Shown here: in pieces, positions 282 through 8,640 of the stretch | Numbering within the stretch: the stretch's first letter is position 1 | How the letters are laid out: each line of letters opens with the position of its first letter | Source of the DNA: a virus | Lineage: Duplodnaviria > Heunggongvirae > Uroviricota > Caudoviricetes | Direction: 5' to 3' (one strand) | IMG/VR virus record: IMGVR_UViG_2681813273_000009 | DNA: 8,933 nt | Made by a program: the position numbers and the translations under genes | Notes under the pieces: model-generated | What the model saw: the letters and a program-made list of their open reading frames with translations, nothing else | The model's database searches: none | What the model was told of the DNA's origin: nothing

Positions 282-449
282 ATGACCACTATTACCAAAG
301 AACGTATTGAATTGTTCATTAAAAACCCGCTTGAAAACGGGCTTACCCGTGGTGAACAAATGGAACTGGCACGGATTGCGCTGGCATCGCTGGAAGCAGA
401 GCCGGTTGTGTTCTGGTTTGAAAAATATCAAGAAGGGGCTACGGCATGA
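282..449 (+). CDS. Small hypothetical protein, 55 aa ([55 protein letters not shown])
   Basis: Not in the ORF track (under 60 aa). AAGGAG at 270-275 sits 6 nt upstream of ATG 282. Its stop overlaps the next start (ATGA at 446-449), suggesting translational coupling. Shares the N-terminal MTT.T.E and IAL.SL.AEP motifs with the next ORF. Confidence 0.5.
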
Positions 450-653
450 CGACTTTTACCAGAGAGCAGTTAATAGCTCACGCAGAGGAGACTATTGAAG
501 CACAGAGACTGNNNNNNNNNNNNNNNNNNNNNNNNNNNNNNNNNNNNNNNNNNNNNNNNNNNNNNNNNNNNNNNNNCATGACGACTTTTACCAGAGAGCA
601 GTTAATAGCTCACGCAGAGGAGACTATTGAAGCACAGAGACTGTGCATACCGG
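445..653. repeat. Direct repeat flanking a 65-nt N-run: 445-511 is identical to 577-643 (period 132 bp, in frame)
   Basis: Read directly: catgacgacttttaccagagagcag...cacagagactg occurs before and after N 512-576. Consistent with an unmerged contig overlap or a 132-bp tandem duplication of the gene's 5' end. Confidence 0.8.
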
Positions 654-922
654 GCACAATCGACCATGACATCATCCGCACATATAAGATGGATATTGCT
701 GTTCTGGAAATCGCACTGGTATCGCTGGCAGCAGAGCCAGCCGGTAAATTGCATGAATACAAACCAGTGGGATATCAGCGTCTGGTCGATGAGTTAACCA
801 TGCTGGTAAAGCAGTTAACCTGGCAACTGAGGAAAGCGAAGCCAGACTGCAAATTACCGGATAAGGCGATGAGTTATCTGGAGCGGAACGGACTGATAAG
901 CGTGGAGGATATTTTACGATGA
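578..922 (+). CDS. Hypothetical phage protein, about 114 aa, paralogous to the preceding 55-aa ORF
   Basis: ORF track 446..922 reads through the N-run; the copy after the gap (ATG 578) is the uninterrupted version. Stop TGA 920-922 overlaps the next ATG (919). Confidence 0.55.
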
Positions 923-1002
923 CCTGGCCTGAAGCATTAACAACGGTAGGAATTGCGATGGCGGTGGCGCTGGTGGTGTATTCGATTTGCCGCTGGGGAT
1001 AA
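919..1002 (+). CDS. Putative 27-aa single-pass membrane peptide ([27 protein letters not shown])
   Basis: ATG 919 overlaps the upstream stop (ATGA); hydrophobic core flanked by charged or aromatic residues. Very short, so uncertain. Confidence 0.3.
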
Positions 1003-1009
1003 AAACGGT

Positions 1010-1037
1010 TTGCGGGAAAAGGAGAGTTAAGTAGAAT
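1010..1037 (+). promoter_or_regulatory. Candidate sigma70 promoter for the hok/mok mRNA
   Basis: TTGCGG (1010-1015), 16-nt spacer, TAGAAT (1032-1037); lies about 120 nt upstream of mok, matching the long leader typical of hok mRNAs. Confidence 0.3.
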
Positions 1038-1099
1038 TGCAGCGGGTGCTTGAGGCTATCTGTCTCAGGCATGAACACCAAAAGGCAGATAGAGAAAAG

Positions 1100-1165
1100 C
1101 CCCAGTTAACATTACGCGTCCGGCAAGACGCTTAACATTAATCTGAGGCTCAATCTATGAACGGC
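1100..1165 (-). ncRNA. Putative Sok-like antisense RNA (boundaries approximate)
   Basis: Inferred from hok/sok architecture: the antisense RNA is encoded opposite the mok start and leader. A minus-strand promoter-like TTGCCT-17nt-TAACCT lies at about +1200..1172 and a minus-strand hairpin gcgtc/gacgc near 1118-1133. Not demonstrated. Confidence 0.25.
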
Positions 1166-1369
1166 AAATCTAGGTTAGCCTCTTACGTGCCGAAAGGCAA
1201 GGAGAAGCAGGCTATGAAGCAGCAAAAGGCGATGTTAATCGCCCTGATCGTCATCTGTTTAACCGTCATAGTGACGGCACTGGTAACGAGGAAAGACCTC
1301 TGCGAGGTACGAATTCGAACCGGCCAGACGGAGGTCGCTGTCTTCACAGCTTACGAACCTGAGGAGTAA
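1157..1369 (+). CDS. Mok-like in-frame N-terminally extended reading frame of the hok locus (70 aa)
   Basis: ORF 1157..1369 contains the hok frame and shares its stop; this matches the annotated mok/hok in-frame arrangement of chromosomal hok loci. Confidence 0.55.
   Translation: MNGKSRLASYVPKGKEKQAMKQQKAMLIALIVICLTVIVTALVTRKDLCEVRIRTGQTEVAVFTAYEPEE
1214..1369 (+). CDS. hokD: Hok/Gef-family type I toxin, 51 aa (MKQQKAMLIALIVICLTVIVTALVTRKDLCEVRIRTGQTEVAVFTAYEPEE)
   Basis: Internal ATG 1214 preceded by AGGAG (1200-1204). The TM helix followed by TRKDLCEV.IR.G..EVA.F.AYE is the Hok family signature; the sequence appears to match HokD/RelF of Qin-like prophages, from memory. Confidence 0.85.
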   Translation: MKQQKAMLIALIVICLTVIVTALVTRKDLCEVRIRTGQTEVAVFTAYEPEE

Positions 1370-1437
1370 GAGACCAGGCGGGGGAGAAATCCCTCGCCAC
1401 CTCTGATGGGTCAGGCATCCTCAATGCACCCACACTT

Positions 1438-1470
1438 AACCCGCTTCGGCGGGTTTTTGTTTTTATTTTC
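1438..1470 (+). terminator. Rho-independent terminator at the hok mRNA 3' end
   Basis: Stem aacccgc/gcgggtt with UUCG tetraloop (1445-1448), followed by tttttgtttttatttt. Confidence 0.6.
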
Positions 1471-1589
1471 AACGCGTTTGAAGTTTTAGATGGTGCCGGA
1501 ATAGAATCAAAAATACTTAAGTAGCGCGCAGGGAGAAGAGGGATGGACCCCGAACAGGGGAGTGCTATTTATCTGGAAGGATTCTGTTG

Positions 1590-1871
1590 ATGAAAATCGA
1601 AGAATTACGTGAAATTTTTAGTGAAGATGGCCTCTATACTGTGCGCGTTGAGAATGGCGCTATTGTCAGCCACTGCCTTCCAGACTACACAATTCTGATA
1701 ATTCAGCCGTCTTTGCCAGCAGGCACGGGCGGCGCTCTCACGCATTTAAATCTGATTGGTACCAGCATCCCCCATGCACTGAAGAACAGGCCGAATGGCT
1801 CATTCAGTGTTACCGCAGGCGCGGATGCGAGGTTAAAAAAGCCCTTAGCCTCGACTACCGTCACTGGATAA
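1590..1871 (+). CDS. Hypothetical protein, 93 aa, in the position held by rem in the Qin prophage
   Basis: ORF track 1587..1871; ATG 1590 preceded by GGAAGGA. Lies between hok and the DUF968 gene. Product not recognised; the rem equivalence is positional only. Confidence 0.4.
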   Translation: MKIEELREIFSEDGLYTVRVENGAIVSHCLPDYTILIIQPSLPAGTGGALTHLNLIGTSIPHALKNRPNGSFSVTAGADARLKKPLASTTVTG

Positions 1872-7270: not shown

Positions 7271-7283
7271 TTATCTGCATCAT

Positions 7284-7360
7284 GCGTTGTTAGCTCAGCC
7301 GGACAGAGCAATTGCCTTCTAAGCAATCGGTCACTGGTTCGAATCCAGTACAACGCGCCA
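7284..7360 (+). tRNA. tRNA-Arg, anticodon UCU (reads rare AGA/AGG)
   Basis: Hand-folded: acceptor gcgttgt/acaacgc, anticodon stem attgc/gcaat, loop cuUCUaa, T-arm actgg-ttcgaat-ccagt, CCA encoded. Confidence 0.85.
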
Positions 7361-7374
7361 CACTTATTTTCCCT

Positions 7375-7400
7375 GGCTCGCTTTTGCGGGCCTTTTTTTT
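7375..7400 (+). terminator. Rho-independent terminator downstream of the tRNA cluster
   Basis: Stem ggctcgc/gcgggcc (one G-U pair), loop tttt, followed by eight T. Confidence 0.65.
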
Positions 7401-7507
7401 AAATGTCTCACAATTCAGACGGTTGACAGTTGTCTGTTTTGCGGGGAGTTTGTTAAAAGAAACTGGCATGGTGNGAATTAATTACGGACCGTTATTATTC
7501 TGCTCCC

Positions 7508-7583
7508 GGCCCTTTAGCTCAGTGGTGAGAGCGAGCGACTCATAATCGCCAGGTCGCTGGTTCAAATCCAGCAAGGGCCACCA
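7508..7583 (+). tRNA. tRNA, anticodon CAU (second copy, identical to 7111..7186)
   Basis: Sequence identical to the first copy. Confidence 0.85.
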
Positions 7584-7590
7584 TCACAAA

Positions 7591-7670
7591 CCGCCATTAG
7601 CTTATCAGGAAGAGCAGACGACACGATAACAGGGTTGTTGGTGCGGGGGCGGGTCCCCGATGGCGGTCCA
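7591..7670 (+). pseudogene. Degenerate tRNA-like remnant in place of tRNA-Arg(UCG)
   Basis: Acceptor halves (ccgccat...atggcggtcca) and D-stem are retained, but the anticodon arm cannot be folded and the T-loop is 6 nt without the TTC motif. Confidence 0.5.
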
Positions 7671-7683
7671 TTATCGGTATTCA

Positions 7684-7760
7684 GCGTTGTTAGCTCAGCC
7701 GGACAGAGCAATTGCCTTCTAAGCAATCGGTCACTGGTTCGAATCCAGTACAGCGCGCCA
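7684..7760 (+). tRNA. tRNA-Arg, anticodon UCU (second copy, one acceptor-stem substitution giving a G-U pair)
   Basis: Identical to 7284..7360 except acagcgc instead of acaacgc in the 3' acceptor strand. Confidence 0.8.
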
Positions 7761-8414
7761 TATTCATTCTTCCAGATTCCTTCCGGCAGAGCCTTATACT
7801 GAAATATACCTGGCTCAGGATATTGTTGAAAATATTTTATGTTTGTCAAAAATAAAAGTTCTGTTAAGTATTGATTGAGTGTTTGTTATACGGTCTAATG
7901 GTTTTTTCAGCATTAAATATTTATCATTCATATGGTGTGGGTAGAGTGAATATTGATGAGGCGTCGGGGTGTTTCATCCTTAGGCAGCGTATTGATATAG
8001 TCAATGCAGCACGAGCAAAGGCCTTCAGCCGTTTGACAGTTTTGTTCTGTACTCCTGATCGTCTTTCGGGAAGAGACGTTATTATTCTGAATAGTGATGC
8101 TATACAGAGGGTTTGCGATGAGTTCATGGTTGCTAATTCAGAATTATTTGCTCTTGTTCAGGAGTACAACAGAATAGCCAGGACCTGTGGTATGGATGAA
8201 CTTCGGATTACTCATCTGGGGTAGATACATATCTGGATTATCACCTGTTACGGTAAAAAGTGATTGCTTACTGTTTTTGTGAATGGCATTGCAGCAGCCG
8301 GATAATGTCAGTGCTGGCTGACGGTGTGCTGGTGGCGGGTGTGGTGGTTGTTGCTTTCCCGTTGCTGAAAAAGAAAACGCCAGACTGTTAGCCGGGTATC
8401 AGTTAGCGGGAGAA
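7761..8414. other. AT-rich insert (about 650 bp) between the second tRNA cluster and the conserved downstream element; candidate moron cassette
   Basis: In copy 1 the tRNA-Arg(UCU) is followed by a terminator and a conserved element; in copy 2 it is followed by this AT-rich block, and homology to the element resumes at about 8415. Confidence 0.5.
7898..8224 (+). CDS. Hypothetical protein inside the AT-rich insert (109 aa from ATG 7898; track ORF starts at TTG 7871)
   Basis: Only sizeable ORF in the insert; no convincing Shine-Dalgarno, and a 67-aa antisense ORF overlaps it. Product not recognised. Confidence 0.3.
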   Translation: MVFSALNIYHSYGVGRVNIDEASGCFILRQRIDIVNAARAKAFSRLTVLFCTPDRLSGRDVIILNSDAIQRVCDEFMVANSELFALVQEYNRIARTCGMDELRITHLG

Positions 8415-8640
8415 ATTTTTAAATACTTCACAATTCAGGCGGTTGACTGTTGTCTGGTTTGCGGGGAGTTTGTTAAAAGAAACTGGCATGGTGAATCCNN
8501 NNNNAATCCAGTACAACGCGCCACACTTATTTTCCCTGGCTCGCTTTTGCGGGCCTTTTTTTTAAATGTCTCACAATTCAGACGGTTGACAGTTGTCTGT
8601 TTTGCGGGGAGTTTGTTAAAAGAAACTGGCATGGTGAATC
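8411..8640. repeat. Two further copies of the post-tRNA element (8415-8499 diverged; 8506-8640 near-identical to 7342-7473) separated by a 6-nt N-run
   Basis: The core caattcagRcggttgacWgttgtctgKtttgcggggagtttgttaaaagaaactggcatggtgaatcc occurs three times in the window; 8506-8637 also repeats the last 19 nt of tRNA-Arg(UCU) and its terminator. Confidence 0.75.

Follow-up and report, generated by a model that had tools for sequence, protein, structure and literature searches.

Apparent tandem duplications in a draft Caudoviricetes record are most probably artefacts mixing two lambdoid prophage loci

Background

Among the hallmarks listed for false duplication is a gap that separates the two members of a duplicated pair within a single scaffold (Ko et al. 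2022, Genome Biol 23:205, PMC9516828, and the work of Kelley and Salzberg cited there). Such gaps are found in the IMG/VR virus record IMGVR_UViG_2681813273_000009 (Caudoviricetes), a DNA stretch of 8,933 nt that was analysed at its full length and is called the window below. In it, genes of a lambdoid late-regulatory module, namely rusA, the antiterminator gene Q and a block of tRNA genes, are repeated across short runs of the letter N (N-runs). On the basis of the sequence comparisons presented here, we consider it about 95% probable that these tandem duplications are not real and are artefacts mixing two prophage loci, named here locus A and locus B, in a draft scaffold.

The window resembles the false duplications of Ko et al. 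in that similar copies flank a gap on one scaffold, two sources have been left unreconciled, and false gene gains and false fusion open reading frames (ORFs) are the result. It differs from them in two respects: the sources described there are diploid haplotypes, whereas here they are two paralogous prophage remnants lying about 670 kb apart in a haploid genome, and here exact overlaps within the same locus have also been left unmerged. In gene content, both loci are like the Escherichia coli/Shigella lambdoid late-regulatory module (RusA, Q, an optional methyltransferase and tRNAs Ile/Arg/Arg), sharing its order, the Pfam families RusA, Antiterm and N6_N4_Mtase, and the tRNA set.

The software SSPACE and GapFiller, with whose output the window can also be compared, is used for scaffolding followed by gap filling. 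GapFiller extends the edges of a gap base by base, stops where no 0.7 majority is reached, and refuses closure if the length is off by more than 50 nt; the gaps that it leaves open are mainly repeats (PMC3446322). A pipeline of Velvet, SSPACE and GapFiller, which has been described as greedy and prone to false joins, was applied to 299 Shigella sonnei assemblies, which averaged 405 contigs (Page et al. 2016, PMC5320598).

Results

N-runs and repeats of the window

Six N-runs, located at 512-576 (65 N), 4129 (1 N), 5331-5346 (16 N), 6104-6121 (18 N), 7474 (1 N) and 8499-8504 (6 N), divide the window into seven N-free segments: S1 (1-511), S2 (577-4128), S3 (4130-5330), S4 (5347-6103), S5 (6122-7473), S6 (7475-8498) and S7 (8505-8933). 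The last N-run had been placed at 8500-8505 in an earlier interpretation made from the letters alone (the sequence-only reading), which was off by one position. Repeats within the window were identified by aligning it with itself by BLAST. The results showed that 445-511 is identical to 577-643 (67 nt, 100%), and 7342-7473 to 8505-8636 (132 nt, 100%). The stretch 3102-4128 matches 4130-5156 without gaps at 96.3% over 1027 nt, and the 38 mismatches, which separate S2 from S3, are all confined to 3353-3785, so that they are flanked by exact stretches of 251 nt and 343 nt. In addition, 5158-5330 matches 5347-5527 with 1 mismatch and an 8-nt indel, 7078-7372 matches 7475-7773 at 87.7%, 7396-7473 matches 8416-8493 at 92.3%, and 8416-8498 matches 8559-8641 at 92.8%. 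The sequence-only reading had stated that five of the six N-runs sit at junctions of repeated sequence and that the run at 6104-6121 has no flanking repeat, and both statements held in this analysis, the latter run standing for zero real bases. Its description of the copies as slightly divergent applies to the other repeats but not to the 67-nt and 132-nt ones, which are exact.

Repeat termini coincide with ten of the 12 N-run flanks. This coincidence alone is weak evidence, because alignments cannot cross Ns; the weight is carried by the dovetail register of the segments and by evidence from outside the window. At five of the six N-runs, a suffix of the segment on the left is also the prefix of some segment to the right. 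S3 is wholly covered by the end of S2, one further base and the start of S4, and S6 is bracketed likewise by S5 and S7. Around 8499-8504 the relation is a three-way one: S7 begins with a repeat of the end of S5, and S6 finishes with a repeat of a stretch inside S7.

Locus A

We constructed a collapsed path, path A, by removing S3 and S6, merging the 67-nt and 132-nt overlaps, placing a T between S2 and S4, and closing the 18-N run to zero. The resulting sequence of 6403 nt matched the closed chromosomes CP104423.1 (L011), CP146292.2 (L013) and CP102341.1 (L014) at 100.000%, with 0 mismatches and 0 gaps, and matched a further sequence, L012, at 99.98%. Five segments tile this single locus, locus A: S1 overlaps S2 by 67 nt, S2 and S4 are 1 nt apart, S4 and S5 adjoin without a gap, and S5 overlaps S7 by 132 nt. 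All five lie on the plus strand and are 100% identical to L011, in which S1 corresponds to 4751-5261, S2 to 5195-8746, S4 to 8748-9504, S5 to 9505-10856 and S7 to 10725-11153.

These positions define what each same-locus gap stands for. The 65-N run at 512-576 is a spurious junction of S1 and S2, which overlap by 67 nt from L011 5195 onwards, so that 577-643 (plus strand) is an unmerged, exact second copy of 445-511; L004, L006 and L008 give the same result. S2 and S4 are separated in the closed locus by a single T (L011 8747). The 18 N at 6104-6121 correspond to zero bases, since S4 ends at L011 9504 and S5 starts at 9505, and likewise in L001, L004, L007 and L009; the true sequence is contiguous here, GACCCGCC being followed directly by GTACTTT, and codes for the DPPY motif. 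The 6-N run at 8499-8504 is a false junction of S6 (locus B) with S7 (locus A), and S7 starts 132 nt before the end of S5; 8505-8636 (plus strand) repeats 7342-7473 exactly and is the unmerged overlap, which L011, L007 and L009 have in merged form.

Locus A is arranged in the order insertion sequence (IS), small ORFs, hok, DUF968, RusA, Q (273 aa), a 65-aa ORF, DNA methyltransferase, tRNAs Ile/Arg/Arg and an inverted IS. S2 carries the small ORFs, hok, DUF968, RusA and Q codons 1-248. S4 carries the last 25 codons of the locus A antiterminator (Q_A), the 65-aa ORF and the 5' end of the methyltransferase gene, and S5 carries the N6/N4 DNA methyltransferase (Pfam PF01555), tRNA-Ile(CAU), tRNA-Arg(UCG) and tRNA-Arg(UCU).

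Locus B and its distance from locus A

The two remaining segments, S3 and S6, which are also on the plus strand, are neighbours at a second locus. When they were joined by the four bases TGCG, their sole separation in locus B, the resulting 2229 nt matched L015 to L018 as a single block at about 99.0%, ungapped in L015 to L017 and with one gap in L018. S3 by itself, which contains the 3' part of rusA, the locus B antiterminator (Q_B, 284 aa) and a terminator, matches L015 to L018 at 98.2% without gaps. S6 matches L016 8925-9948 at 100%, four bases past the match of S3, and is also found at 100% in L005 to L007 and L009; it contains tRNA-Ile, a decayed argN remnant, tRNA-Arg(UCU), a 117-aa ORF and DUF3927. 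The order of locus B is accordingly RusA, Q (284 aa), tRNA Ile, the decayed Arg remnant, tRNA Arg, the 117-aa ORF and DUF3927. Neither the 65-aa ORF nor the methyltransferase of locus A is present in it, and the middle one of its tRNAs is decayed.

Exact-protein look-up placed both loci in the same chromosomes. Exact copies of Q_A (273 aa, from S2+T+S4) and Q_B (284 aa, from S3) carry the names Shigella sonnei or Shigella; each protein is found on no fewer than 1,000 contigs, complete chromosomes included, and in about 90 index blocks with a longest contig of more than 1 Mb. On the 4.82-Mb chromosome CP104423.1, Q_A maps to 1.856-1.873 Mb and Q_B, oriented alike, to 2.526-2.543 Mb, and CBDDMI010000001.1 encodes both proteins as well, in the same arrangement. 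The distance between the two loci in closed chromosomes is about 670 kb, and identical stretches as long as 343 nt are common to both. Shigella sonnei is the most probable organism, with at least two degraded late-regulatory regions of lambdoid prophages. A gene for an IpaH-type effector with LRR_TTSS and NEL domains lies about 7 kb upstream of locus B (1-907 of L015 and L017), which is consistent with a Shigella host.

The two Q genes also differ by an 8-nt deletion (AACAAGGT, between AGGT direct repeats) near the stop codon, at window position 5231 in S3 versus 5420-5427 in S4, as a result of which Q_B is extended to 284 aa compared with 273 aa for Q_A. The deletion is real: the closed S. 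sonnei locus B has it, and equal-length single-piece matches point to it in the closed E. coli genomes TK3889, H8, YZMc17-1 and EC17CM12 as well.

Junctions in closed genomes and other collections

Three further N-runs of the window thus stand at joins between the two loci: the single N at 4129 joins locus A (S2) to a locus-B-type contig (S3), the spurious 16-N run at 5331-5346 stands between the locus B contig S3 and the locus A contig S4, and the single N at 7474 joins locus A (S5) to locus B (S6). We searched 5,426 closed E. coli genomes with a query made of 150 nt from each side of 4129, counting matches at 80% coverage or more. The junction as written was found in 0 of the 5,426 genomes, and the best matches covered exactly one half of the query, whereas the merged form S2+T+S4 was covered in 2,450 of them, with 100% single-piece matches. 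For the 7474 junction as written, the top matches listed from these genomes all consisted of 2-3 permuted pieces and none was contiguous; 1,238 genomes contained the merged junction S3+TGCG+S6 in one piece at a coverage of at least 80%. The as-written 4129 junction was not found in species-representative genomes or in viral contigs either, where it is not established whether an N in the search pattern matches a literal N.

Annotated prophages of closed E. coli genomes have one copy each of RusA, Q, the methyltransferase and the tRNA block. Two architectures were observed, an A-type with RusA, Q, the 65-aa ORF, the methyltransferase and three tRNAs (L004), and a B-type with RusA, Q, tRNA-Ile, tRNA-Arg and DUF3927 without a methyltransferase (L002 and L003). 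S3 and S6 each align as one piece to the B-type prophages, in which they are 4 nt (TGCG) apart, and strains 203740 and 042 carry an A-type and a B-type together in one chromosome. Identity over the alleles of the window was about 97% at most in this collection and neither phase of the contigs was attested above 97.6%, because the organism is missing from it; the closed Shigella sonnei chromosomes reached through the protein look-up resolved which contigs belong together. Matches of closed E. coli genomes to the whole window, which covered 95% of the query within about 8.8 kb, raised the possibility that the duplications are real. This was rejected, as RusA, Q, the methyltransferase and the tRNAs are annotated there as single copies and an unrelated 2-kb insertion had made the lengths similar by coincidence.

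Taken together, no uninterrupted sequence spanning a novel junction was found in these searches, in the window itself every junction is an N-run, and the two copies do not share one chromosomal locus, the S3/S6 type being at 2.53 Mb and the S2/S4/S5/S7 type at 1.86 Mb of CP104423.1. What is present are three marks of false duplication, namely a gap between copies on the same scaffold, the dovetail register, and a collapsed form that is contiguous in finished genomes, in which the as-written junctions were not found.

Mosaic structure of S3 and recurrence in other drafts

At 61 discriminating sites, S3 shows only the state of locus A or that of locus B and no private variant. The states are arranged in four blocks: 20 A-state sites (4146-4341), 38 B-state sites (4381-4813), A-states at 5157 and 5175, and then a B-state at 5267 together with the 8-nt deletion. 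The switches between them fall in shared stretches of 39, 343 and 55 nt. This mixture fits partial collapse or chimerism and also gene conversion, and the other segments are pure A or pure B.

A hybrid Q protein, P0003 (284 aa), which has a locus A head and a locus B tail, was found on draft contigs only, in 385 index blocks, with no contig longer than 200 kb, and is deposited under Shigella sonnei names. It is located in L006 (3005-5233), L008 (1-1483) and L019 to L022. It is probably a recurrent chimera formed across the 343-nt exact repeat that has entered the protein databases.

The interleaving is not confined to the window. The IMG/VR contigs L005, L007 and L009 show single-N junctions with the same paralog overlaps and alternating A and B segments, and the public drafts FTTI01000148.1, CXCN01000135.1, FTZO01000155.1 and FTSI01000004.1 (L019 to L022) switch back and forth between locus A and locus B segments at N-runs that are 1-31 N long. 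An N-free contig of a sister scaffold, L009 2770-6011, equals locus A from 3786 to 7352 and at 7353 turns locus-B-like (about 97% identity with S6), which points either to a third paralog or to a further chimera.

Gene content, reading frames and boundaries

Pfam matches in the window comprise Hok (1157-1369), DUF968 (1947-3005), RusA (3006-3386, PF05866), antiterminator Q (PF03589), an N6/N4 DNA methyltransferase (5994-7070) and DUF3927 (8260-8391). The order RusA, antiterminator Q and downstream tRNA genes is that of the lambdoid late-regulatory module and is the same in annotated closed prophages. An ORF of 343 aa at 3383-4414 (plus strand) is false: it consists of Q residues 1-248, an X and RusA residues 33-126, its frame being kept by the single N at 4129. 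Its Pfam matches are an Antiterm domain truncated at profile position 70 of 87 and a RusA domain starting from profile position 23, and its exact sequence is absent from a collection of 15 billion proteins.

As written, the window contains five tRNA genes in two sets. The genes at 7111-7186 and 7508-7583 were called tRNA-Met (CAT) by ARAGORN, while RefSeq annotates their homologues in closed genomes as tRNA-Ile; presumably they carry a lysidine-modified CAU anticodon and are ileZ-like. The middle tRNA of the locus B block (7592-7680, at the argN or tRNA-Arg-UCG position) is decayed, in that the halves of the acceptor stem are kept, the anticodon arm is replaced and ARAGORN does not call it; this form is common among closed E. 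coli genomes. The 117-aa ORF (7871-8224, TTG start), which lies in the insert specific to locus B, has no Pfam match, and in the annotation of closed genomes it is listed only as hypothetical.

The left boundary of the window is the right end of an IS3-family element (1-72, plus strand), made up of the last codons of the transposase gene orfB (ending in REKYHQMAA and a stop codon) and the IS terminus. The identical 72 nt occur in L011 in reverse complement 35 nt past the end of the window (11188-11259) and also at 15916-15987, and S7 accordingly ends 35 nt before the inverted IS copy. The adjoining ORF in L009 has Pfam rve/HTH_21 matches, and L006 has terminal inverted repeats of 107 nt (1-107 and 6130-6236). 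The window is therefore the whole inter-IS segment, locus A being 6.4 kb bracketed by inverted IS copies, as expected for a short-read scaffold ending in repeats. An ORF at 41-271 is a hybrid reading frame of IS and prophage. The A-type prophages of closed E. coli hold about 2 kb more near window position ~1460-1680 (L001 4256-6468 and L004 3256-5477), comprising a hypothetical gene and a helix-turn-helix gene; this insert is missing from the window and from the closed S. sonnei locus, a difference that looks like ordinary lambdoid mosaicism.

Discussion

The sequence-only reading had proposed a chain of unmerged contig ends, or collapsed paralogous lambdoid prophages, rather than real tandem duplications. 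The rejection of duplication is upheld by the exact match of path A to closed chromosomes, by the placement of S3+TGCG+S6 at a second locus and by the absence of the 4129 junction from all closed E. coli genomes searched. Both proposed causes are seen, each at different junctions: S1/S2, S2/S4, S4/S5 and S5/S7 are unmerged or abutting ends of one locus, and S3 and S6 are contigs of the paralogous remnant that have been inserted, so that the paralogs are interleaved and not collapsed. In all, 132 + 1217 + 18 + 1163 = 2,530 of the 8,933 positions (28%) are misplaced at locus A.

If a single prophage had truly duplicated its rusA-Q stretch (about 1.2 kb) and its tRNA block (about 1 kb) in tandem, and the assembler had left short gaps at the junctions, this would account for direct repeats in tandem order on one record, and the divergence between the copies (96.3% and 87.7% identity) could in principle reflect old duplications. 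Such an event would however require each junction to fall exactly on an N-run and the Q-RusA fusion to be produced across the single N at 4129, a protein that the collection of 15 billion does not hold. No N-free sequence with the novel junctions turned up among the closed E. coli genomes, where the listed matches to the 7474 junction were permuted pieces, or among the species representatives or the viral contigs; the 6403 nt of path A match closed chromosomes at 100.000%, and the supposed second copies are neighbours at another chromosomal locus; we regard real duplication as almost inconceivable. It is also very improbable that S3 and S6 came from a second strain through a mixed culture or contaminated library, which would make them allelic contigs and not paralogs within one genome. 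Mixtures can give divergent allele pairs, and S3 reaches just 98.2% to the closed locus B. Nevertheless, a second strain is unneeded where single closed chromosomes carry both loci, with the A segments and S6 matching at 100%; the same alternation is seen in several independent drafts, and the differences of S3 from locus B are all locus A states, as mixing within a genome predicts.

If the duplications are artefacts, the manner in which they arose is much less certain than that verdict, and so is the choice between chimera and conversion for S3. All seven segments are laid in the order of their positions on a common backbone, their starts and ends strictly increasing along one single-copy reference locus, and the lengths of the N-runs are unrelated to the true spacing. 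Five contig ends abut bases that discriminate A from B: S2 ends and S4 begins on either side of a single T(A)/C(B) site, S3 starts directly after a G(A)/T(B) site and ends directly before GACTGA(A)/TGCGGA(B), and S6 starts directly after TTGAA(A)/TTGCG(B). Contig or gap-fill extension may have halted where the reads of the two paralogs disagree, overlaps may have been left unmerged since closure did not fit the estimated gap size, and read-pair links via the shared exact stretches could have drawn locus B contigs into the locus A scaffold. The mosaic of S3 would then be due either to an assembler that walked or popped bubbles across k-mers common to both loci, or to real gene conversion. These features fit a greedy scaffold-then-gap-fill pipeline of the SSPACE/GapFiller type as a possible cause, and the short N-runs of arbitrary length are like the output of these programs.

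The same artefact could have another cause, in that the contigs were ordered by alignment to a reference with a single prophage copy and concatenated with Ns, without read pairs and gap filling. The strictly increasing order of the segments suits this explanation, and so do the end of S3 and the start of S6, which lie exactly at boundaries of A/B homology with TGCG lost, as alignment trimming would yield. Three observations speak against it: about 640 nt of S6 (7774-8415) have no counterpart in locus A and yet were not trimmed, the N-runs are irregular in length and include an 18-N run at a zero gap within one locus, and the break between S2 and S4 at a single discriminating base resembles ambiguity at the level of reads and not an alignment layout. 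Reference-guided tools, moreover, generally produce gaps whose sizes are fixed or taken from the reference. We consider reference ordering rather unlikely.

Several findings weigh against parts of the interpretation given above. The idea that every contig end lies at a paralog-discriminating base had to be given up, as the end of S5, the end of S6 and the start of S7 are not at an A/B difference, a point in which the window departs from the SSPACE/GapFiller pattern, and the N-run lengths of 65, 1, 16, 18, 1 and 6 have no quantitative explanation. The N-free sister contigs L006 and L008 join S2 to a B-type tail and S6, which implies that the phase across the 343-nt exact repeat is not uniform among drafts; the doubt that they cast on the link from S2 to S4 was dismissed for closed genomes because of the 100% match of path A and the restriction of the hybrid protein to drafts. 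At the 22 sites where S3 departs from the closed locus B it always shows the A-state, so the real locus B of this strain may differ by gene conversion, and chimerism of S3 is unproven. L010 contains the exact A-to-B switch of S3 but is a mosaic of a different background, and it leaves the choice between chimera and gene conversion undecided. That the S3 mosaic is a real gene-conversion product and not an assembler chimera, with remnants 670 kb apart exchanging short patches in this lineage, seems to us unlikely. If it were so, the hybrid Q allele P0003, seen only in drafts, would also be real.

Conclusions

Once untangled, the window holds nothing unusual: it represents two ordinary remnants of lambdoid prophages, bounded by ISs, which closed Shigella sonnei chromosomes already contain. 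Readings based on duplicated rusA-Q, duplicated tRNA sets, the 343-aa Q-RusA ORF, a 158-aa ORF that reads through the 65 Ns or the six X residues of the methyltransferase are void, and the value of the finding is practical only, as a warning on duplication-based readings of the window. For pangenome and gene-gain analyses of such drafts it calls for caution, since the draft-only hybrid Q may be a by-product of interleaving.

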